A stretch of 64,000 nucleotides of DNA, taken from UHGV virus genome UHGV-1384413. One strand, written 5' to 3'. This stretch comes from a virus. Below are positions 2,776 through 55,077 of this stretch, piece after piece. The notes beneath the pieces were generated by a model. That model was not told the origin of the DNA and did not search any database. It saw only the letters and a list, made by a program, of their open reading frames with translations. Positions within the stretch are counted from its first letter, which is position 1; each line of letters begins with the position of its first letter. The position numbers were made by a program, and so were the translations under genes.

Positions 2776-3069
2776 TCAAGACTTTTTAGTCTTTCTTGGA
2801 GAGCCTTTTGTTGATCTTTTCCTTTTGTGGTAGATTCCAAGTGCGGCGTTTTCTTGGGCGCACGTTTTAACAGTTCTCAGACAAGAACTTTCAGCTTTAG
2901 GTAGGTTTAACTCCCACCAACCAAGCCAGTAAAGTTCTGATTCAGACAACTGCTCAGATTCAGCCTTTCGATACAGTGCTTGCATACCTCTGATAATGTC
3001 GTCCAGAGGCGTATCAAATACAAAAGCTGTCTTATCGAATTTCTCTTTTACAGGTTTCTTAGCCATCAA
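2776..3069 (-). CDS. hypothetical protein
   Basis: 97-aa ORF with lysine-rich C-terminus. Confidence 0.35.
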   Translation of the reverse strand: MMAKKPVKEKFDKTAFVFDTPLDDIIRGMQALYRKAESEQLSESELYWLGWWELNLPKAESSCLRTVKTCAQENAALGIYHKRKRSTKGSPRKTKKS

Positions 3070-3562
3070 GGTAACCCTCTATCCACGAAAAGTCAGTCTT
3101 CCATTCTGGAACTTTACTAAGCTCACGCCACTCTGCAAAGCAGTCTCGGTAATACGCCTCTGCCATACCCTTGGTGATCTTATTCACCTTAGCCAACTGA
3201 TTAACTGCCTGAGCATACTTTCCACGGATATTTGCTAACCCAGGATGCACCGATGTGTGACAATCTGGGCACAACGCTATCAGTCCGACAAGCCGGATCA
3301 CTCCCTCTTCGAAAGTGTAAAGTTCATGACACTCCACCGGATGTTTGCTGCCTTTACCACCACACACCTCACAAGTGTAGTTGGCTTCTCTGTAACACTT
3401 CTTACGGATCTTATCCCACTCACTCTTCTTCACAGCGTTTCTGAGGTTATTATACCAAGCTGTCTCCGGGATCAGTTGCACAATAAGCCTGCGTTCAGAC
3501 TTCATTAAACGTCCGTCTTCCATCAGCCCTCCAATTTGACCATACAATGACCATCTTTCCAC
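3059..3562 (-). CDS. zinc-finger protein, possibly HNH-like nuclease
   Basis: 167 aa; CEVCGG..HPVECHE..CPDCH Cys/His cluster; the HNH assignment is weak. Confidence 0.3.
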   Translation of the reverse strand: MERWSLYGQIGGLMEDGRLMKSERRLIVQLIPETAWYNNLRNAVKKSEWDKIRKKCYREANYTCEVCGGKGSKHPVECHELYTFEEGVIRLVGLIALCPDCHTSVHPGLANIRGKYAQAVNQLAKVNKITKGMAEAYYRDCFAEWRELSKVPEWKTDFSWIEGYLDG

Positions 3563-3741
3563 TTAGAAATCGATCTTTCGCCATTAGAGTAATAAACTTC
3601 AAGCTTAGCACGGTCATTCTTGATCTGTATGACCTTCGCTGTTTCTAGGGAACCATAACCGTAGTATACTGCAACAGTATCTCCCACATACACTACACTC
3701 CCGCGATAATCGTGAATATAATCAGTGCCTTCTAAAGCCAT
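3523..3741 (-). CDS. hypothetical protein
   Basis: 72-aa ORF. Confidence 0.3.
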   Translation of the reverse strand: MALEGTDYIHDYRGSVVYVGDTVAVYYGYGSLETAKVIQIKNDRAKLEVYYSNGERSISKWKDGHCMVKLEG

Positions 3742-3751
3742 ATTACCACCC

Positions 3752-3958
3752 TTATTCGAAGAAGTGAGTCCGAGGACAAGATCCAGCCTCGCCTTGTTTC
3801 ACAAGCTCGTAGAGCTCACCTTGGCTTGTTTCATAAAGGCAAATACGTTTACCATTGTCCCGATATACATCTACAAGATACGCTGTTTCACCTGCAAACA
3901 CGACACCACAGGCAAGGCATGCTGCCATGAACAAAATTGCCAACAGAAAATCTTTCAT
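3752..3958 (-). CDS. small membrane or secreted protein (holin candidate, speculative)
   Basis: 68 aa; N-terminal hydrophobic segment FLLAILFMAACLACGVVFAG; lies immediately downstream of the endolysin on the same strand. Confidence 0.35.
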   Translation of the reverse strand: MKDFLLAILFMAACLACGVVFAGETAYLVDVYRDNGKRICLYETSQGELYELVKQGEAGSCPRTHFFE

Positions 3959-4021
3959 GGTTAAACTCTCCTTAACATTTTACTGGGTAACAATACCACA
4001 TCCATGTGGTCATGTCAATGA

Positions 4022-4492
4022 TTAATCTAGAACAACACCGCCTGACTTTTTAAACACCTCGATCAACTTTTCGATCTTCTGTTCGTGCTGACCATACCCT
4101 GCACCGGGGAGGCTTGCCCATCGGGATCTGCAAAGATGGATGGCCTGATGAATACGACCTTCATCAATATCATCGAGCGCCTTGCACTCACGGATCAATT
4201 GTAGTGCGATCTTATCCTGACTGGCAGGGCCAAAATCTGGTAATCCTAACTGTTTCATATAGTGTTTAGCAAACTTCTCCAAAACTTGGTAGCGCCCCGC
4301 AGCAGAGGAGGTAAGTTTAGCATTTAGCTTAACGTACACACCTGGATGCTTACTGTAATCGCTAAACAGCTTGCCACCGACTATGACATCATAGCCCCGA
4401 TCCTTGGTAGGTTGTCTACCATTATCTGTACCTTCTGAATATGCGATCATGTCCAAGAAAGCTTTTCGTTGAACATTTTTATCAAGTCTCAT
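4022..4492 (-). CDS. endolysin, lambda R-like lytic transglycosylase
   Basis: 156 aa; N-terminal NVQRKAFLDMIAYSEGTDNGRQ and C-terminal WASLPGAGYGQHEQ closely resemble phage lambda R as recalled from memory. Confidence 0.8.
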   Translation of the reverse strand: MRLDKNVQRKAFLDMIAYSEGTDNGRQPTKDRGYDVIVGGKLFSDYSKHPGVYVKLNAKLTSSAAGRYQVLEKFAKHYMKQLGLPDFGPASQDKIALQLIRECKALDDIDEGRIHQAIHLCRSRWASLPGAGYGQHEQKIEKLIEVFKKSGGVVLD

Positions 4493-4616
4493 TTTTCATA
4501 CTCTCCAATTTACTCATAACTAACCCGATCAACAACACTGCATAATGTGGTTATGTAGGTGCCAATTGAAAAACCATCATTCAATTGGCTACCGTTACCT
4601 ACTAAACCTTCCTACA

Positions 4617-5900
4617 TCATTCCAGAACCTCCCAAGTGTCAGGGTTAACATTTCGGACGCAGATGCCGACAGGGAATTGGTAGTTGTTGTCTTCTGTCCT
4701 TGCTTGATATTTGAAGGTGACAAACTTGCCGATCATTTCCTGCATCCTGTCATAGCTACGCTCCTCGTGCGTGCCTTTCATCTTCATTTTAACAACGATA
4801 CCTTCCTTGTCAACGCAGATAAGAACACCTTCATCATTCTTATCTTTCTCAACGTCAATAACTTTCACCTCAGCATCGTTGAACTTTTTCCATTTCAATG
4901 CTTCAGATGTTCGCTGACCATATTCATATTTACCGCAGAAGTTACGCATGATAGTACCTTCATATCCTTCGGACATGAATACACCAACAGATTCTTCGCA
5001 ATGATCAACTGTGTACGCAAGCTCTGCGTCAACAACCTTGATATGGTCAAGCATCAGGGTGGTAATGGTATCTTCTGCATCCATAAGATCCTTGCATCGT
5101 CCAGATTCTGTTTCTGGATCCCACCATACCTTGTCACTAGGGATGTCGAAAATATGATACTCTAAGTCATAGCTACAGTACCCTCCGTAACGCAAATCAT
5201 CACGAATAGGCTCAACATCAACAGGAATATCTACCTTATTGAAGTTTTTGTATGTTGATAAGCCTGCCTTAATTGCGGCATGACGGCGTTTTTTATCTGC
5301 CTCGTAGTCTTTATCGATCTCGGCCTGAATCTCTTCCTGTGTGCGCCACCGTTTAGCAAGAGACACTATTTTCTGCAGAGGCAGACCATGAATATAGATC
5401 TCTCCGTCGAGCTGTTTAATCCCGGTGGTGAAGTGGAAAGAACGAAGTTGCTCCAGAAGCTTTCCTTGAATAGGGTAGGACTTATTACCACGGGAAATAA
5501 ATTTAGGCTCACCGTTTTGGAAAACAACCAGTAGACGAAGGCCATCTAATTTACGCAAAATCCAGCAAGGTAATTTAAGTGCCTTTCCACGCTTCAGGTA
5601 GTCATGCACCAACATGGGTAAAAGGTCAACACCCTGCTCGCAATCTTCCATATTTTCAACATATCCCAGACGGACTTGTTTTTCCCACTTACTGATCGCT
5701 TCCAGCTCAGCCTGTTGCTCAGCTGTAGTTTCATTGGCACGACCCACGTTCTTAGGTGTGCAGATCGTCTCTTTGTATTGCAGTTTACCATCAAGCTTGC
5801 CAAACTCTACAATAACCTTATCACCATCCGTGAATACTTTCCACTGCTGGTAGCTGCCATCTTTGTTCAGTGCGTACAGTGTTGTTTTGATCTGATGCAT
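4617..5900 (-). CDS. ATP-dependent DNA ligase
   Basis: 427 aa; adenylation motif I KLDG within ILRKLDGLRLLVVF; length and layout fit T7-type phage ligases. Confidence 0.75.
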   Translation of the reverse strand: MHQIKTTLYALNKDGSYQQWKVFTDGDKVIVEFGKLDGKLQYKETICTPKNVGRANETTAEQQAELEAISKWEKQVRLGYVENMEDCEQGVDLLPMLVHDYLKRGKALKLPCWILRKLDGLRLLVVFQNGEPKFISRGNKSYPIQGKLLEQLRSFHFTTGIKQLDGEIYIHGLPLQKIVSLAKRWRTQEEIQAEIDKDYEADKKRRHAAIKAGLSTYKNFNKVDIPVDVEPIRDDLRYGGYCSYDLEYHIFDIPSDKVWWDPETESGRCKDLMDAEDTITTLMLDHIKVVDAELAYTVDHCEESVGVFMSEGYEGTIMRNFCGKYEYGQRTSEALKWKKFNDAEVKVIDVEKDKNDEGVLICVDKEGIVVKMKMKGTHEERSYDRMQEMIGKFVTFKYQARTEDNNYQFPVGICVRNVNPDTWEVLE

Positions 5901-6169
5901 TACTCAGCCTCTTCCTTAAAAATTTTAAACATCTCTTCTTTGCTCATTACCAACCAGTCTCCCATAAAGTCAACTAACCAATCCCCTTGGTACAAGACCA
6001 GGTTACCAAACGGCTCGACAAGCTCACACATGCGAAGAATATCTCTGGTCCGAACAGGTGACGGTGTAAACACACCTGTATCAATCCACCGTTGTAGATC
6101 AGATACTGATGAAGAGCTTCCGTCAAACTGGTGTGCTTCTACAGGTTTAGCAAGATTAAATAACGGCAT
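5900..6169 (-). CDS. hypothetical protein
   Basis: 89-aa ORF whose start overlaps the ligase stop. Confidence 0.35.
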   Translation of the reverse strand: MPLFNLAKPVEAHQFDGSSSSVSDLQRWIDTGVFTPSPVRTRDILRMCELVEPFGNLVLYQGDWLVDFMGDWLVMSKEEMFKIFKEEAE

Positions 6170-13324: not shown

Positions 13325-13399
13325 GCCCTGTTAGCTTAGTGGATAAAGCAGCGGCCTTCTAAGCCGTTGACACTGGTTCGAGTCCAGTACGGGGTGCCA
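13325..13399 (+). tRNA. tRNA-Arg (anticodon TCT)
   Basis: Manual cloverleaf: acceptor gccctgt/acggggt, D stem gctt/aagc, anticodon loop cuUCUaa, T loop ttcgagt, CCA encoded. Confidence 0.7.
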
Positions 13400-13403
13400 A
13401 ATT

Positions 13404-13490
13404 GGGGAGTTATCCCGTAGAGGTAGCGGTGTAGACTGTAAATCTATTGTCATTGCGACTCGGGTGGTTCGACTCCACCACTCCCCACCA
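13404..13490 (+). tRNA. tRNA-Tyr (anticodon GTA), long variable arm
   Basis: Acceptor ggggagt/actcccc, anticodon loop cuGUAaa, variable arm tgtcattgcgactcg, T loop ttcgact, CCA encoded; D stem imperfect. Confidence 0.65.
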
Positions 13491-13604
13491 AATTTACATT
13501 TTTAAATGCATAAATTATACAGATAATGACATTGATATTTATCGTCGTTTATACTAGTCACTAACTGCTCGAAAATCAGTGTCATTATCAGTGTAATTTA
13601 TAAA

Positions 13605-13695
13605 GGAGAGTAGGGAGCAATGGTGCTCAAGCGGTCTTGAAAACCGTCCCATTGAGGACGACTTGATGATGGTTCGATTCCATTACTCTCCGCCA
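13605..13695 (+). tRNA. tRNA-Ser (anticodon TGA), long variable arm
   Basis: Acceptor ggagagt/actctcc, anticodon stem gcggt/accgt with loop cuUGAaa, 20-nt variable arm, T loop ttcgatt, CCA encoded. Confidence 0.65.
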
Positions 13696-13793
13696 TATTG
13701 TTAACCTTGTAATTAAGCGAAAGCCGGAAGCAGAACCGGATTATCAAATGTTACAGTCGTCATCGCCGACTAGCAACATGGTTAACATTATTC

Positions 13794-13890
13794 GCTAGGT
13801 AAGCCCTTTGGCAAGGGCGAGGATTTTTAATCCTGAAAATAGACGAGGTAGTCGTTGAATACATAGGTGGTTCGATTCCATCACCTAGCA
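13794..13890 (+). tRNA. atypical tRNA-like gene (best fit anticodon TTT, Lys-like) with ~30-nt variable region
   Basis: Perfect 7-bp acceptor gctaggt/acctagc and canonical T arm ggtgg-ttcgatt-ccatc, but the anticodon arm is 4 bp plus a G.G pair around loop uuUUUaa, followed by a 30-nt stem-loop region; no CCA. Confidence 0.4.
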
Positions 13891-13896
13891 CCTTTT

Positions 13897-13972
13897 GCTG
13901 ATGTAGCACAATTGGCAGTGCAATTGATTTGTAATCAATAGGTTGCAGGTTCAAGTCCTGCCATCAGCACCA
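13897..13972 (+). tRNA. tRNA-Thr (anticodon TGT)
   Basis: Acceptor gctgatg/catcagc, anticodon stem attga/tcaat with loop uuUGUaa, T arm gcagg-ttcaagt-cctgc, CCA encoded. Confidence 0.7.
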
Positions 13973-13973
13973 T

Positions 13974-14048
13974 GGCCCTGTAGCTGGAAGGTTCAAGCAA
14001 GCGACTCATAATCGCCAGACGGTGGTTCAATTCCACCCAGGGCCACCA
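13974..14048 (+). tRNA. tRNA-Met or tRNA-Ile2 (anticodon CAT)
   Basis: Acceptor ggccctg/cagggcc, anticodon loop cuCAUaa, T arm ggtgg-ttcaatt-ccacc, CCA encoded. Confidence 0.65.
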
Positions 14049-14059
14049 AATAATAAATA

Positions 14060-14136
14060 CTCCGCGTAGCTCAGCTTGGTAGAGCGCCTGATTTGGGATC
14101 AGGAGGTCGAGTGTTCGAATCACTCCGTGGAGACCA
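14060..14136 (+). tRNA. tRNA-Pro (anticodon TGG)
   Basis: Acceptor ctccgcg/cgtggag, D arm gctcagcttggtagagc, anticodon stem cctga/tcagg with loop uuUGGga, CCA encoded. Confidence 0.7.
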
Positions 14137-14558: not shown

Positions 14559-14957
14559 ATGATTTCAGTTTTAACATTGATGAGTAAACACAGAGGGATC
14601 ATAAAAGGTTTAGTTTTTGCAGCGGCTATAGGCATGGCTTATCTTGGGGCCGTGTATTGGTTTAACTCTAAGCTCAATGATGCTTATCAAGAAGGTGTGT
14701 TAGCAACAGAGTTAAAGTGGGAACGGATCCTTGACCAACAACAAAAGCAGGCCGACAAAATTAAAATGGGCCACGCAGAGGAGGTTAAAAACCTTGAAAA
14801 ATCTCTTTCTGATCTACAGGATAAATTAAATATGGCTGAGAAGGCAGGTAAAGAAAAGCAGATTATCTACCTCCAATCTCCTGAAGGTAAGAAGTCAACA
14901 CTTCCTGATCAGCTAATAGATATTTATAATGAGAGTATCAATCAGGAGGTTCGATGA
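14559..14957 (+). CDS. i-spanin-like protein (inner-membrane anchored, coiled-coil)
   Basis: 132 aa; N-terminal TMD GLVFAAAIGMAYLGAVYWF then charged helical periplasmic region; stop overlaps the next start (ATGA). Confidence 0.5.
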   Translation: MISVLTLMSKHRGIIKGLVFAAAIGMAYLGAVYWFNSKLNDAYQEGVLATELKWERILDQQQKQADKIKMGHAEEVKNLEKSLSDLQDKLNMAEKAGKEKQIIYLQSPEGKKSTLPDQLIDIYNESINQEVR

Positions 14958-15241
14958 GAGTTACTGCACTGGTTGTTTTGTGCTTGTTATTGTGTGGGTG
15001 TGCAACCAGCGTTGAGAGAGAATACAAGATTGACCCTCCGGATGTAGGAAGGTTGATTGTTAAACCTCCCGAGGGTGCTATGAAACCACCTGCTAAAGCT
15101 ATCCCTTTGAAGAAAGGTGCGCCAGATGCGGTGAATTCTGGCATTATGAGGGATAATAACCTGTCTTGTAGTAATGATAGGGCTAAATTGATCATTTTGC
15201 AAGACTATATAAGAACACTGTTTCCAAAGGAGAGAGGTTAA
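14954..15241 (+). CDS. o-spanin-like lipoprotein
   Basis: 95 aa; signal peptide ending in lipobox-like LLCGC, proline-rich mature part; coupled to the i-spanin gene. Confidence 0.5.
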   Translation: MRVTALVVLCLLLCGCATSVEREYKIDPPDVGRLIVKPPEGAMKPPAKAIPLKKGAPDAVNSGIMRDNNLSCSNDRAKLIILQDYIRTLFPKERG

Positions 15242-15666
15242 TGTCTAAGATTTACGGACCGTGTTCTGAAAAGCAGAAGATGATCCTAGAGAACGATGCA
15301 GATATTTTGGTGATCGGAGGTGCAGCTGGGTCTGGCAAGTCGTTCCTCTTGCAGCTAATGCCGCTTAAAATTATTGATGACCCGCACAGCTCTGTGGTTA
15401 TGTTCCGAAGAACAACTCCCCAGTTGGAAGGTGAGGGTGGGCTATGGCCTAAAGCAGTAGCTATTTACAGTGATCTGCCTGAAAACATTAAACCAAAGTT
15501 CAGAGAGAAGGATCATAAGTTTATTTTTCCACGGTTTGATCCGAGCACTGGCAAGTGGGATAGGAGCAAAAAGGGGGCCGTTGTAAAATACTGCCACATG
15601 GAGTATGTCCAAGATAAGCTTAACCATCAAGGCCTTGAGTACACCATGGTTTGCTTCGATGAGGGT
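15241..15666 (+). CDS. terminase large subunit, ATPase N-terminal part (exon 1)
   Basis: Walker A GGAAGSGKS; ORF ends straight after Walker B MVCFDEG with TAA at 15667. Confidence 0.7.
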
Positions 15667-16550
15667 TAATTTGTAGCTCTCGTAAAACCTCCCTAATTGC
15701 GGGGAAATCTTTATTATTGACACCACCAACCTGTCATGGTAACATGATAGAGGCTTCGAAGAGAGATCGAAGGTATGGTAACAGTGTGTTAATTTAGATA
15801 ATCCGCAGCGAAGCATCCGAGAGGATGAACGTTCAACGACTAGTCGAAAGACGTAGAATCAAGCGATTCGAAACGGGAGGGTGAATGTGTAATACTAAAA
15901 AAATGTATGGATTGCCAAAGAGTTCTGCCTCTTGATGATTTCTTTTTATCATCTAAGAGCAAGGATGGATACTCAGGTACATGCAAGGAATGCTATATGT
16001 ACTACAGGAAGAATGGATCTCGTAGAAACAAAAATATGGTTAAGAGAGATGATGCAGCATCTTTTGTTCAAGACTTGCTGAAGAAAGGTGAGCTTTTTGA
16101 ATGTAAATCTTGTCATGAAAGTATGCTTGCTGATAGTTTTTACACAAAGCGTGACTATGGTAAAGTGTATCTGGTTACGAACAGGTGTAAGATGTGTGAA
16201 AAGTTTTATCAGATTGAGAAGAAATTTCACATAACAAAAGATGAATACTATCGTTTACTCTCAGATCAAGATCATAAGTGTGCCATTTGTAGAATATCTC
16301 TTGATGAGTATAGGACGCAAGGGTACAGAGATTTCTTTTGTGTTGATCATGACCATAAAACTGGTGCTGTAAGAGGGTTGCTTTGTGATAAATGCAACAG
16401 AGCTTTAGGGTTCTTCCAAGAGGATGAGGAAACCATTCTTAGAGCAGCAGAGTATTTGCACATTCATAAGATATAGTCTGGTCTGCATGGAGACATGCAG
16501 CTGCCTGAAAATGGCGGGGCAAGACTAGCGACCTTGCCCGAACATAAACG
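15667..16550 (+). mobile_element. probable group I intron (boundaries approximate) carrying an HNH homing endonuclease ORF
   Basis: Interrupts the terminase reading frame right after Walker B; ORF-free flanks 15667-15906 and 16477-16550 contain hairpins such as gggcaag/cttgccc; stop at the 5' junction, candidate omega-G at 16550. Confidence 0.5.
15907..16476 (+). CDS. HNH homing endonuclease
   Basis: 189 aa; several CxxC pairs and canonical FCVDHDHKTGAVRGLLCDKCNRALG HNH core. Confidence 0.75.
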   Translation: MDCQRVLPLDDFFLSSKSKDGYSGTCKECYMYYRKNGSRRNKNMVKRDDAASFVQDLLKKGELFECKSCHESMLADSFYTKRDYGKVYLVTNRCKMCEKFYQIEKKFHITKDEYYRLLSDQDHKCAICRISLDEYRTQGYRDFFCVDHDHKTGAVRGLLCDKCNRALGFFQEDEETILRAAEYLHIHKI

Positions 16551-17672
16551 ACGCAATTCGAATGGGAGCAGATAGACTACCTGATGTCTCGTTTGCGATC
16601 TCAGTCAAAGTATCCATCAAGAATGGTTATCAGCTGTAACCCCGACTCAGAACACATGCTTGCCAAACTGGTTAGGTGGTGGTTGGACGATGAAGGGTAT
16701 CCAGATCCGGAGAAATGTGGTAAGAAAAGATATTTTATCCGACGCGACGGTGAATTTATTTGGGGAGACTCTAAAGAAGAGTTAATAGAGAAATACACCA
16801 CGGTTAACGGACTGGGTGTGGAGATCAAGCCAAGACCGTTGTCATTCTCGTTTATAGGCGCAACAATTTTCGATAATCCTGTCTGCTTGAGAGACAACCC
16901 AGAATACCTTGCTTTCCTTGAAGGTCTGCCAGAGCTTGAAAAAGCCCAGCTTCTTCATGGAAACTGGTTTGCCAAACCTGAGGGTGCAAACTATTTCCAA
17001 AGATCTTTCCTTCGGGATGCCGATAGAGTACCTCTTGGATCAGTATCTTGCAGGGCATGGGATAAGGCAGGAACCGAGAGAACTTCCGGTAATAAATTTC
17101 CTGACTTTACTGCCAGTGTTAAGGTAAGTAAAGATAGCGACGGCTTTTATTACCTGTCCGGGGATTATTGTCCTGAGAACGTGGATGACGGTAGGTATTC
17201 CACAGGTCTGGAAGGAAAGTTCTGTAAAAAGGCTGGGGAACGAGATGTGATCATCAGGAAACAGGCGCAGTTTGATGGAGATGATTGCATAATCGTATTT
17301 TCTGTGGACCCCGGTCAGGCAGGTAAGAGTGAGTTCTTAACCTCGTCCAGATCCTTGCTCGCCGAAGGGTTCAGGGTTGAAGAAGATCCAATGCCTTCCA
17401 ACAAATCTAAGCTGACAAGGTTCTCACCTTTTGCCAATCTTGCCCAACAAGGAATGGTGAGGATTGTAAAATCCAGTTTCCATCCTGACACTCTGGAAGC
17501 ATTTCTGACTGAACTTGAAAAGTTCAACGGGGAAAGATCAACATTTAACAGAAAAGACGACTGGGCCGACTGTGTAGCTTCTGCGATTAATTTCCTGGAG
17601 AAAGAGGAGGTAGCGCTGCCTTGTGTGATTCCATCAATCTCATCACCTTCTATGTTCAAGCGTTTTATCTAA
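16551..17672 (+). CDS. terminase large subunit, nuclease C-terminal part (exon 2; 5' boundary approximate)
   Basis: Frame open from 16548; TQFEWEQIDYLMSRLRS..VISCNPD continues the ATPase C-motif region, then a nuclease-domain-like region FSVDPGQAGKSEF. Confidence 0.6.
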   Translation, partial: TQFEWEQIDYLMSRLRSQSKYPSRMVISCNPDSEHMLAKLVRWWLDDEGYPDPEKCGKKRYFIRRDGEFIWGDSKEELIEKYTTVNGLGVEIKPRPLSFSFIGATIFDNPVCLRDNPEYLAFLEGLPELEKAQLLHGNWFAKPEGANYFQRSFLRDADRVPLGSVSCRAWDKAGTERTSGNKFPDFTASVKVSKDSDGFYYLSGDYCPENVDDGRYSTGLEGKFCKKAGERDVIIRKQAQFDGDDCIIVFSVDPGQAGKSEFLTSSRSLLAEGFRVEEDPMPSNKSKLTRFSPFANLAQQGMVRIVKSSFHPDTLEAFLTELEKFNGERSTFNRKDDWADCVASAINFLEKEEVALPCVIPSISSPSMFKRFI

Positions 17673-22286: not shown

Positions 22287-22318
22287 TGGGGAGGGGGTTC
22301 TCCCCCTCCCCTTTTTTA
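22287..22318 (+). terminator. rho-independent terminator
   Basis: ggggaggggg-ttct-ccccctcccc followed by TTTTTT. Confidence 0.8.
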
Positions 22319-52756: not shown

Positions 52757-53341
52757 ATGAAAATACTTCAAGAGTTTAAACTTTACCAGCCGGGATCTGG
52801 CGAATACTACACCAACAAGGAGACCAAGGAGCTGACTCCTCAGGAGGTTGAGGATTACACAGCATACACTGGATATTTTTTACGTAATGATGATGGCGAT
52901 TGGTATGTGCAATCACGAACACTGCGACAAGAAAATCCAGGCTGTATCTTCCTACTTGTTGACGAGAAGGGTATTCTTAAGACATCTACAGAAGAACCTG
53001 ATGCCTTGTGGCCTGCTCCAGGTCTTCGTGTGGTTATCGCCAAAAAAGAAGAGGTACCAGAAAACATTATGCTCCACCACGACGCTTTGCGTTTAGTTGG
53101 TGATGAATTTGTCACAGACAATGAATTCTTTGTTCAACAGGCAGAGGGTGTCATAGAGACAGAACTTGCTTGGGCTACTGCTAGAATTGGTGCCTATCAA
53201 GACATGATTGACCTTGAATACGATCTTACTGATGACCAAAAACGCAACATCAGAGATTTGAAAATGTACAGGGTAAAACTTCTTGAAATAGATACATCTA
53301 AAGCCCCTGACATTTTCTTCCCGGAACGACCTACCCTCTAA
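52757..53341 (+). CDS. tail fibre assembly protein (Tfa-like chaperone)
   Basis: 194 aa; C-terminal YRVKLLEIDTSKAPDIFFPERP matches the conserved Tfa C-terminal motif. Confidence 0.6.
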   Translation: MKILQEFKLYQPGSGEYYTNKETKELTPQEVEDYTAYTGYFLRNDDGDWYVQSRTLRQENPGCIFLLVDEKGILKTSTEEPDALWPAPGLRVVIAKKEEVPENIMLHHDALRLVGDEFVTDNEFFVQQAEGVIETELAWATARIGAYQDMIDLEYDLTDDQKRNIRDLKMYRVKLLEIDTSKAPDIFFPERPTL

Positions 53342-53352
53342 GAGGAGGTGTT

Positions 53353-53667
53353 GTGGAGTTGGATTTGGCGGCATTGTACGGTATCTGCATGGGTACCGTT
53401 GTCCCGATCTGTGTATGGGCTTTCAACCAGTGGCACACCAAATGGAAAGGCATTTCCAAGAGGTTGGATGAGCTGGAGAAAGACCTCATCTTAGTGAAAA
53501 ATAGCATGGTTACAAAAGATAGACTTGATTCCATTATCGAGACCCGGTTAAGTAAGCTAGAGGCCGATATTAACGACCTTAAGCAAGATGTCAGGACAGA
53601 TGTCTCCGGTATCAGAGCTGATGTGCAAAAGATTTTACACATGCTTGTAGAGCATAGTAAAAGGTAA
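53353..53667 (+). CDS. small membrane protein with coiled coil (function unknown)
   Basis: 104 aa, non-ATG start with RBS aggagg; one N-terminal TMD LYGICMGTVVPICVWAF then charged helical region. Confidence 0.35.
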   Translation: MELDLAALYGICMGTVVPICVWAFNQWHTKWKGISKRLDELEKDLILVKNSMVTKDRLDSIIETRLSKLEADINDLKQDVRTDVSGIRADVQKILHMLVEHSKR

Positions 53668-53675
53668 ACAAAGGT

Positions 53676-53710
53676 CAGAACGGCAAGGATGCCGTTCTTG
53701 CATTTTGTTC
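53676..53710 (+). terminator. rho-independent terminator
   Basis: cagaacggc-aagga-tgccgttctt then TGCATTTTG. Confidence 0.6.
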
Positions 53711-53717
53711 TCTAAAG

Positions 53718-53726
53718 TGTTAAAAT
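53718..53726 (+). promoter_or_regulatory. extended -10 promoter element TGTTAAAAT
   Basis: Variant of the recurring TGnTAAAAT motif; about 30 bp upstream of ATG 53755. Confidence 0.35.
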
Positions 53727-53754
53727 AGTCCTTAAGGAATTTTCTCAGGAGAAC

Positions 53755-54801
53755 GTGATGACTAAACCAGTTATCCCTCTTGATATTTGGGCCAATCAGG
53801 ATGTTGTGCTTGAAAATACAGGAGAGTTGAACAAATCTCAACCGAACAAAGAAGAGAGATTGAAAGGTTGGGATATGACACAAAGGATAGCATGTGAAGT
53901 TGTTAACTTTGAACTCCACATGCTTTCTGCGTGGCTAAAGCATTTAACAGAAGATGTTGTCCCTGGATGGGATAATAGATTCTTAAGGGTCACTAATAAT
54001 CTGGCAGATGTTCCAGACAAAGCTGCTGCACGTAAAGTTCTCAATGTATACTCGCCTGAAGAAATGGATGACCTGTATGTTGACAAGACTGGGGACACAA
54101 TGACCCAGACTCAAACTTTAGGTCTTCAAAGAATCGAGTTTGCATCCGCGTCAACAGACAATGCGGCGATATATACCACCATAACTCCAGACAAGACGAT
54201 GATGGATTTCTGGATTATGGACAACATCGGCGGTGCTGACGGCACGGACCTTGATGATCCTTCTCACCAAATAGACGGTTTCCGTTGGAGATTTCAACCC
54301 TCTGGTGGGCAGCCTGTGTTTTCGGCTATGAAGCTCAATGCTATAACTGCCAACCGTGCAAGACTGGCTATCCAAGGAAATCTTGAATGCAATGATGCAA
54401 AAAGCTCCTCTGCAAATGCTAATGCGGTAACGATACCAAGAGCCACTGTTAATGGACAACAATCCTGCGGCAGCGCTCAAATAGGTGGAAGAGTAGATTG
54501 TAACGATAAAACCGCCAGGGGTCAATATGCAACAGTTGGTGGGAGAAACGTTGTCCGCAGGGTAAATGGTAGTAGCGCAGATAGCAGTGGTAACCTTACT
54601 ATCCCTATGCCTAGTAGGGGTGTTGAAGATGTAAGGATAGCAAACCGCTTCAGAACCACCTACAGAGAATCAAGAGTATACCCTGGGCATGTAATGTGCT
54701 CCGGCAATTACGCCTATAAACACCCGTATCAAGGTGACTATTGGACTGGTGCTATTCAAAAATTTGTAAACGGTCAATGGATCACTATATCTTATGCTTA
54801 A
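53755..54801 (+). CDS. tail fibre / receptor-binding protein, paralogue B
   Basis: 348 aa; N-terminus PVIPLDIWANQDVVLENT and C-terminus IQKFVNGQWITISYA parallel the 51702 ORF. Confidence 0.45.
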   Translation: MMTKPVIPLDIWANQDVVLENTGELNKSQPNKEERLKGWDMTQRIACEVVNFELHMLSAWLKHLTEDVVPGWDNRFLRVTNNLADVPDKAAARKVLNVYSPEEMDDLYVDKTGDTMTQTQTLGLQRIEFASASTDNAAIYTTITPDKTMMDFWIMDNIGGADGTDLDDPSHQIDGFRWRFQPSGGQPVFSAMKLNAITANRARLAIQGNLECNDAKSSSANANAVTIPRATVNGQQSCGSAQIGGRVDCNDKTARGQYATVGGRNVVRRVNGSSADSSGNLTIPMPSRGVEDVRIANRFRTTYRESRVYPGHVMCSGNYAYKHPYQGDYWTGAIQKFVNGQWITISYA

Positions 54802-54810
54802 AGAGGGTAA

Positions 54811-55077
54811 ATGAAATTAACTCAGTTTTTATGGGGGTTGGTTGCGGCATCTGATGACCCTACGAAAGTGTCCCAATCTAAGCTATGGTCAAACATAGGC
54901 ATGGCAGTGATGACTGGGGTGTTTATTCATATGGGGTACAATGATACGCTTCCTGAATGGTATGCGTGGATATACGCACCTTCGGTAGCTTGCCCCCAGC
55001 TTATTAGCAAATTCATCTCGCTCCGGTGGGGTTGCCAACACCCTGACCACGTTAAAAACGAAGAGCAAAAAGCTTAA
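54811..55077 (+). CDS. small hydrophobic protein (function unknown)
   Basis: 88 aa with two hydrophobic stretches (FLWGLVAA, IGMAVMTGVFIHMGY). Confidence 0.3.
   Translation: MKLTQFLWGLVAASDDPTKVSQSKLWSNIGMAVMTGVFIHMGYNDTLPEWYAWIYAPSVACPQLISKFISLRWGCQHPDHVKNEEQKA

Follow-up and report, generated by a model that had tools for sequence, protein, structure and literature searches.

We analysed a 64,000-nucleotide (nt) stretch of the viral genome UHGV-1384413 (hereafter the window) with regard to its lysis genes, starting from an endolysin gene on its minus strand and the genes and noncoding DNA that adjoin it. The phage is a Vequintavirus, i.e., an rV5-like coliphage of the myovirus type: over positions 3000-6000 it shares 99% identity with Escherichia phage ECP2303, and 124 rV5-like (Vequintavirus) records match this stretch at 90% identity or more. 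The endolysin gene is surrounded by genes for DNA metabolism, all on the minus strand, namely those for a ligase, an HNH endonuclease, a FEN-type exonuclease, and a RuvC-like nuclease, and the order annotated on this strand in the phages Gotham and Murica is ligase, endolysin, a 68-amino-acid (aa) hypothetical protein, HNH endonuclease, and further nucleases. A preliminary description of the window had recognized a lambda R-like endolysin among minus-strand replication genes, and both the identity of the enzyme and its place among such genes are upheld here. The gap between the ligase and endolysin genes contains an inverted repeat, and the genes for a spanin pair and for two small membrane proteins lie elsewhere on the plus strand (Table 1). 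We take this locus to be probably one part of a dispersed lysis system of Vequintavirus, laid out as in T7 and partly as in T4.

The endolysin retrieves the lambda lysozyme structures in phmmer searches of the PDB over query residues 4-154 (1am7_A, expect value [E] 3.1e-56; 3d3d_A, E 4.2e-56) and matches PHROG 90, labeled 'endolysin', at 4.9e-55, with no match in Pfam-A at E <= 0.01. The catalytic region is retained, with AYSEGTDNGRQ of the window protein aligned to AWSEGTDNGRQ of lambda, in which the glutamate of the SEG(T) motif is what we take to be the catalytic residue. The N-terminus, MRLDKNVQRKAFLD, is polar, and a hydropathy scan of all 156 residues revealed neither a hydrophobic N-terminus nor any other hydrophobic segment. 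These features show the product to be, as far as can be read from its sequence, a cytoplasmic muralytic enzyme of the lambda R type that carries no export or signal-arrest-release (SAR) signal. Being soluble and devoid of a hydrophobic N-terminus, such an enzyme would depend on a holin, and the timing of lysis would therefore be set elsewhere, by a hole-forming membrane protein encoded outside the endolysin locus.

Table 1. Positions of the lysis-related and neighboring features in the window
Feature	Position	Strand	Basis
68-aa protein (rV5 gp90 equivalent): probable Sec signal peptide and ~45-residue two-cysteine beta domain, probably periplasmic	3752-3958	-	PHROG 4641 (unknown function)
Sigma-70 promoter with extended -10, TTGACA-17-TGgTATTGT, between endolysin stop and 68-aa gene	3990-4018	-	Consensus scan; PhagePromoter annotation in Gotham
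Soluble lambda R-type endolysin, lytic transglycosylase fold, 156 aa (rV5 gp89 equivalent)	4022-4492	-	PDB, PHROG 90, rV5 paper and gene table
Endolysin Shine-Dalgarno GGAGAG, 8 nt upstream of ATG at 4492	4501-4506	-	Read from sequence
Perfect 10-bp inverted repeat, GCCAATTGAA-N9-TTCAATTGGC	Arms 4561-4570 and 4580-4589	.	Sequence
ATP-dependent DNA ligase, upstream of endolysin, same direction of transcription	4617-5900	-	Pfam DNA_ligase_A_M and DNA_ligase_OB_2; ligase in Gotham and Murica
Sigma-70-like promoter match TTGACA-16-TAAAAT (11/12, TG-extended), inside ligase 3' end	4786-4813	-	Consensus scan
i-spanin, 132 aa, N-terminal transmembrane segment, then charged helix-like periplasmic domain	14559-14957	+	PHROG 4297 Rz-like spanin, 6.3e-48
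o-spanin, 95 aa, lipoprotein signal LLLCGC	14954-15241	+	PHROG 1267 Rz-like spanin, 4.3e-22
Tail-fibre assembly protein (Caudo_TAP / T4 gp38-like), precedes 104-aa gene	52757-53341	+	Murica annotation, rV5 gene table, Caudo_TAP Pfam in contigs L079 and L081
104-aa protein (rV5 gp31 equivalent): one N-terminal transmembrane segment and charged, probably coiled-coil domain; holin/antiholin candidate	53353-53667	+	
Late-promoter-like motif TGTTAAAATA, upstream of fibre gene 53755-54801 and 88-aa gene	53718-53727	+	Motif scan
88-aa protein (rV5 gp29 equivalent), best in-window holin candidate	54811-55077	+	Family alignment, AlphaFold, context

No canonical holin adjoins the endolysin, a point on which hydropathy analysis and family searches of the neighboring genes agree with the preliminary description. 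The sole protein encoded on the coding strand near the endolysin that has a hydrophobic segment is the 68-aa protein (residues 4-22), which had been put forward as a holin candidate. As such it might be a holin proper or a class III-like holin/antiholin with a single transmembrane domain (TMD), and would form a minimal two-gene cassette with the R-type endolysin. The only strongly hydrophobic segment beside the endolysin is indeed found in this protein; the two genes are nearly equal in distribution (~124 Vequintavirus records each), and they remain adjacent in a divergent sister lineage with rearranged flanks (L010 and L014-L016; endolysins 64-83% identical). However, across 11 homologues (63-97% identity) the hydrophobic N-terminus is the least conserved part of the protein, and it ends in V-F-A or A-W-S before a glycine, i.e., in a small-residue -3/-1 site of the signal-peptidase type. 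The conserved part is instead a near-invariant domain, (E/D)TAYLVD.YR..G...C.YETSQGE.YELVK.GEAGSCPRTH, with two invariant cysteines, which takes up the C-terminal 45 residues, so that no charged cytoplasmic C-terminus is present. AlphaFold models it as a four-stranded beta domain with a predicted local distance difference test (pLDDT) score of 84-92 over residues 21-50. Comparison with Pfam, NCBIfam, and the lysis-category PHROGs gave no holin family match, and the equivalent gp90 was not flagged as a membrane protein in the TMHMM and Phobius scans of the rV5 authors (PMC3606486). Further, a strong sigma-70 promoter with an extended -10 element, as is typical of early genes, serves this gene alone; in the sister lineage the promoter keeps its position, with the -35 and -10 hexamers retained around an unrelated spacer. 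Beyond Vequintavirus only four weak matches to the 68-aa protein were recovered; the one examined, from SSBI34, retains the signal peptide and both cysteines, and its gene occupies the corresponding genome region although an R-type endolysin is not encoded nearby. Taken together, these observations make a holin function for the 68-aa protein very improbable. A crude scan for holin open reading frames (ORFs) upstream of R-type endolysins, which recovered them in 6 of 57 lambdoid contigs, was too insensitive and was not used.

The same features are those expected of a secreted accessory protein, which the 68-aa protein probably is on the strength of its sequence pattern. Its gene would be an independent, sigma-70-driven unit for a small Sec-secreted periplasmic beta protein with an accessory early function, such as superinfection exclusion or envelope modification. 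A more specific proposal is that it is a periplasmic regulator of lysis or exclusion, comparable to the T4 tail-lysozyme inhibitor Spackle or to the superinfection-sensing antiholin RI. The features of a small secreted disulfide protein, the early-type promoter, and the existence of rIIA and rIIB homologues in rV5-like phages would suit such a role, which would also account for the adjacency to the endolysin across lineages. Nevertheless, the proposal is one of analogy with T4 biology, the protein has no sequence or fold likeness to any known protein (a Foldseek search with the beta domain found no significant neighbor, only generic small beta barrels at E >= 0.02), and the SSBI34 homologue does not adjoin an endolysin gene; we accordingly consider this specific form improbable and keep as a secondary possibility that the secreted protein modulates muralytic activity or superinfection from the periplasm in a new way. 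Two other ideas concerning this gene were discarded. The protein is not a lipoprotein, as its N-terminal cysteines are not conserved among the homologues and there is hence no lipobox; and a palindrome in its promoter (3990-4015) has its inner pairs broken in Gotham and Murica, and the spacer is unrelated in the sister lineage.

The inverted repeat between the ligase and the endolysin had been described as a perfect 9-bp repeat in the region 4493-4616 that may control lysin expression. The repeat is present and is in fact perfect over 10 bp, whereas the regulatory role was not substantiated. It begins 28 nt past the ligase stop codon on the transcribed strand, and a flanking GTAGGT/ACCTAC pair can extend it to a longer bulged hairpin. 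The role envisaged would be to bind a dimeric regulator as its operator or, on the model of T4 gene e, to limit early lysin synthesis as an RNA hairpin at which transcripts reading through from upstream are attenuated or processed. The repeat does occupy one of the few noncoding gaps, from ligase stop to lysin start, and is predicted to fold well (39-nt hairpin, -17.1 kcal/mol, z -5.7 versus shuffled sequences; extended 82-nt hairpin with the outer GUAGGU/ACCUAC stem, -25.1 kcal/mol, z -3.0); across seven Vequintavirus genomes its arms are mostly conserved around a loop varying in length (7-10 nt) and sequence. Yet none of the pairs in these genomes is changed on both sides, three of the 10 show pair-breaking variants only, and the Murica version folds like shuffled sequence (z -0.48). 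The range of loop lengths argues against an operator of fixed spacing, the motif occurs once in the window, and the window contains no more perfect repeats of this class (arms of 10 bp or longer, loops of 3-20 nt) than chance would give (2 observed versus 1.5 +/- 1.4 expected from Markov simulations). Moreover, in the sister lineage the endolysin gene starts ~10 nt after a 184-aa gene, with no such intergenic gap and no repeat upstream of the endolysin. No Rfam family matches the repeat. A regulatory role of either kind is thus improbable.

Two specific mechanisms for the repeat were also considered and rejected. As an intrinsic terminator it has only four G-C pairs among the 10 of the stem and no U-tract (the downstream minus-strand sequence is ACCUACAUAACC), and a terminator scan was silent; as a device for sequestering the ribosome-binding site in the style of T4 gene e, it is located ~55 nt upstream of the Shine-Dalgarno sequence, which remains largely unpaired in the centroid fold. 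We would instead view the repeat as an AU-rich hairpin in the 3'-terminal part of the ligase message, peculiar to the ligase-endolysin junction of the rV5-like lineage, that may at most be a lineage-specific 3'-end, processing, or pause element of the mRNA and not a conserved lysin switch. FV3, EduardKellenberger, and A140 have a 28-nt insertion just downstream of the hairpin. The other perfect 10-bp inverted repeat in the window, GGGGAGGGGG-N4-CCCCCTCCCC at 22288-22311, is probably a strong terminator in the structural region.

As for its expression, the endolysin gene is preceded by a Shine-Dalgarno sequence that is invariant across seven related genomes, and by no copy of the late-type promoter motif TGGTAAAATA in 4493-4616. 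This late motif was described for rV5, and homologues of gp55, gp33, and gp45 are absent from rV5-like phages (PMC3606486). In the window it occurs, with up to one mismatch, at 16 sites versus 6.25 +/- 2.5 expected, 14 of them on the plus strand of the structural region; these T4-late-promoter-like sites span 15522-60610. Transcripts that pass through the hairpin and on into the endolysin gene may arise at the sigma-70-like match at 4813-4786, within the ligase gene. Because the late motif is missing before the gene and this sigma-70-like match is present inside the ligase, the simplest reading would be that the endolysin gene belongs to the DNA-metabolism unit of the minus strand and is reached by read-through from promoters that lie within the ligase gene or before it. 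In EduardKellenberger (MZ501061.1, 121381-121653), a putative homing endonuclease gene replaces the start of the endolysin gene right after the conserved ligase-endolysin intergenic region and uses the endolysin Shine-Dalgarno context.

The spanin pair, reported earlier as lying more than 10 kilobases (kb) from the endolysin on the other strand and beside the terminase, was confirmed by PHROG matches and by the overlapping junctions of its genes. The i-spanin has its hydrophobic segment at residues 14-32, with charged, helix-like sequence after it, and the lipobox cysteine of the o-spanin can be read in MRVTALVVLCLLLCGC before AT. The two genes share a 4-nt overlap (ATGA), and that for the o-spanin overlaps the start of the large terminase subunit (TerL) gene by 1 nt at 15241. 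This arrangement shows an Rz/Rz1-type pair that, by its gene junctions, is translationally coupled to the large terminase gene in a late unit. 'rv5' spanin families were listed by Kongari 2018 (PMC6139136), and the CB7 paper noted that the spanins of rV5 and PVP-SE1 are found beside the large terminase, outside any classic cassette. The terminase gene itself is split into TerL segments 15241-15669 and 16584-17672, with an HNH-type endonuclease ORF (15907-16476) between them, which agrees with published accounts of an intron and homing-endonuclease interruption in rV5 and LL12. Seven transfer RNA (tRNA) genes are clustered on the plus strand at 13325-14136, a short way before the spanin and terminase genes; one odd call (13794-13892), 99 nt long with a four-base anticodon, is possibly an intron-containing gene or a pseudo-tRNA.

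Within the window, the two small membrane proteins of the fibre module, which the preliminary description also listed as holin candidates, proved a reasonable choice, being conserved across two subfamilies, though without a match to a holin family. Both are found in fibre modules across Vequintavirinae and Stephanstirmvirinae, with homologues in 369 phage records for the 88-aa protein and in 224 for the 104-aa protein, from phages of Escherichia, Klebsiella, Salmonella, Cronobacter, Pectobacterium, and Erwinia, and for the 88-aa protein alone also of Aeromonas. A profile search for the 88-aa protein recovered 173 relatives; where these come from long contigs, the contigs measure ~130-155 kb. 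Members of the family are predicted to begin with a short helix, which is followed by two helices of transmembrane length (22-44 and 49-72) with only four residues between them; an invariant LRWG and a charged tail of variable length complete the protein. The PHROG of the family (1322) is labeled 'membrane protein'. Wherever its context was examined, the 104-aa gene follows the gene for the Caudo_TAP (gp38-like) assembly protein. PVP-SE1 and Av-05 have three contiguous membrane-protein genes, namely gp44 (the 104-aa homologue, one TMD), gp43 (four TMDs), and gp42 (the 88-aa homologue), and in the metagenomic contig L079 the 104-aa and 88-aa genes directly overlap. Directly 3' of the 104-aa gene in the window is a terminator-like hairpin, AGAACGGCA-AGGA-TGCCGTTCT, with a T-rich tail (in the stretch 53677-53712, hairpin at 53677-53698). 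Given this hairpin and the late-promoter-like motif that follows it, the 104-aa gene appears to be the last of one late transcription unit and the 88-aa gene a member of the next.

The holin is most likely the 88-aa two-helix membrane protein, possibly together with the 104-aa single-pass protein, though this is a tentative assignment whose odds fall short of even. It is doubtful whether the claim can be widened to make the two a previously unrecognized holin/antiholin (or holin/regulator) pair for all Vequintavirinae and Stephanstirmvirinae, whatever their endolysin type. A paper on the related phage BME3 proposed an 81-residue class-II-like protein, which, judged by its size, may belong to the same family as the 88-aa protein. 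The product of PVP-SE1 gp43 (157 aa, four predicted TMDs, PHROG 7451 of unknown function; locus L006, 3812-4285, and for Av-05 locus L007, 3812-4285) was dropped as an in-window candidate, since neither the window nor those segments of Murica that were searched encode a homologue. Between their 104-aa and 88-aa genes, in the gp43 slot, rV5-like phages have a duplicated gene for a tail fibre (53755-54801 in the window). A DUF2644 label carried by two metagenomic homologues, together with one precomputed PF10841 match, was not reproduced with the current Pfam, and no paper mentioning the DUF2644/PF10841 family was found.

Other candidates have been named for the holin of these phages. The rV5 paper (Kropinski 2013, PMC3606486) assigned the lysin function to gp89, reported no homologue of a holin, and put forward as holin the two-TMD, 78-aa gp129, encoded apart from the lysin 'as in T4'. 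The holin could be a genus-specific two-TMD protein encoded outside the window, either rV5 gp129/Murica117 (75-78 aa) or Bas51_0117/Murica168 (123 aa), and the fibre-module membrane proteins would have another role. The former has two strong transmembrane segments and a basic C-terminus, the latter was deposited as 'putative holin', and both kinds of protein equal the R-type endolysin in their genus-level distribution. Against them, neither is a canonical holin nor matches a holin family, and both are putative; their genes sit among small early-region genes, and a holin is also required in related genera, from which these proteins are missing. The LL12 annotators named no holin (PMC6658697), and in the Gotham announcement none was identified. 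We regard an out-of-window holin of this kind as possible, at less than even chance. Outside the window, Murica gene 2 (locus L003, 1980-2480) adjoins rIIA and encodes a SleB-like hydrolase of the cell wall that apparently begins with a signal peptide; this could be a second, Sec-exported lytic enzyme, in which case lysis may not depend on the R-type enzyme alone.

The arrangement can be set against several well-studied phages. The closest correspondence is with rV5 itself, in which the genes for the gp89 lysin, the gp66/gp67 spanins, gp90, gp29, and gp31 correspond to those of the window in the same order. Across rV5-like phages, DNA identity to the window is 93-99%, and the published verdict is alike, with the endolysin and spanins separated and no holin positively identified. 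Only strain-level differences are seen, such as single-base variants of the hairpin and the 72-aa DUF7205 gene (3523-3741), located between the 68-aa and HNH genes, which is present in the window and Gotham and not in Murica. This gene is a presence/absence polymorphism, and many records match just ~92% of the 3-kb query, in two pieces. About 17-21 records that bear the name 'Campylobacter phage' are near-identical to rV5-like phages of E. coli, which suggests a mislabeled host or contamination in those deposits; A140, the one examined, carries the mark UNVERIFIED.

The likeness to T7 extends to all three parts of the system. In the T7 annotation, the amidase gene (gp3.5) is located between endonuclease and HNH/primase genes, the holin gene 17.5 after tail-fibre gene 17, and the spanin genes (gp18.5/18.7) between those for the terminase subunits. 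Likewise, the window has its muralytic gene among DNA-metabolism genes beside an HNH endonuclease gene, its spanin genes directly before the large terminase gene, and a small membrane protein gene after a tail-fibre gene. However, the enzyme is a lambda R-type transglycosylase rather than an amidase, the 88-aa protein has no detectable homology to gp17.5, the phage is a large myovirus using the host RNA polymerase, and the holin role of the fibre-module proteins is putative here. With lambda, the window shares an endolysin that aligns to R nearly full length, with the same catalytic region, and a two-component Rz/Rz1-type spanin. In contrast to lambda, the endolysin gene is not preceded by one for an S-type holin and is part of an early/middle unit and not of a late cassette, and the spanin genes overlap by 4 nt instead of being embedded, at the distance and on the strand noted above. 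In T4, the holin gene t follows the tail-fibre assembly gene 38, just as the 104-aa gene follows a gp38-like gene. The dispersal of the endolysin, holin, and spanin genes is a further point in common with T4 (for its spanins, see Kongari 2018, PMC6139136), as are the rIIA/rIIB homologues of rV5-like phages. The differences are that no homologue of the T holin is present (no Pfam match), the 104-aa protein, half as large as T, has a charge distribution suggesting the opposite topology, and the T4-type factors for late transcription mentioned above are missing.

Thus, our overall explanation, to which we give a probability of about 0.7, is that the window carries the dispersed lysis system of an rV5-like phage, in which the 68-aa protein is not the holin, the inverted repeat is not a lysin switch, and the holin is encoded outside the endolysin locus. 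Several observations weigh against this explanation or parts of it. The timing of transcription was read from gene layout and motifs, and signal-peptide cleavage of the 68-aa protein from hydropathy and an alignment pattern; the adjacency of the latter gene to the endolysin, which persists in Vequintavirus and in the sister lineage and not in SSBI34, leaves a modest chance of a functional link, e.g., as a periplasmic modulator. The better conservation of the arms of the repeat than of its loop would fit a functional hairpin. With respect to the fibre-module proteins, searches of Pfam, NCBIfam, and PHROGs found no holin family for any candidate small protein. The AlphaFold model of the 88-aa protein has its two transmembrane-length helices at low confidence (mean pLDDT 59), its hydropathy is moderate, below the threshold of 1.4-1.6, and the annotators of PVP-SE1 predicted a single TMD for the homologue. 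The tail after LRWG is disordered, charged, 10-50 aa long, and acidic or mixed rather than basic. An hhalign comparison of the family with T7 gp17.5 gave a probability of 0.6%, with only an 'L.EW(F/Y)' loop motif shared. Finally, every context of the 88-aa gene that was examined lies among fibre or baseplate genes and not among other lysis genes, a constant association that could mean a role in fibre assembly or exclusion.

The scattered layout as such has been published for rV5, LL12, Gotham, and CB7 and is a known, ordinary architecture for rV5-like phages. What the present analysis adds is that the 68-aa candidate is removed, the regulatory repeat is left without support, and the candidates within the window are narrowed to the conserved pair of the fibre module. 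If the proposal for these two proteins is true, they would fill the place of the 'missing holin' of several genome papers on rV5-like phages and their relatives. Cocktails for therapy and biocontrol make wide use of rV5-like and phi92-like phages, in which the holin acts as the lysis timer; knowledge of this protein would allow the engineering of lysis timing and a cleaner use of their endolysins.

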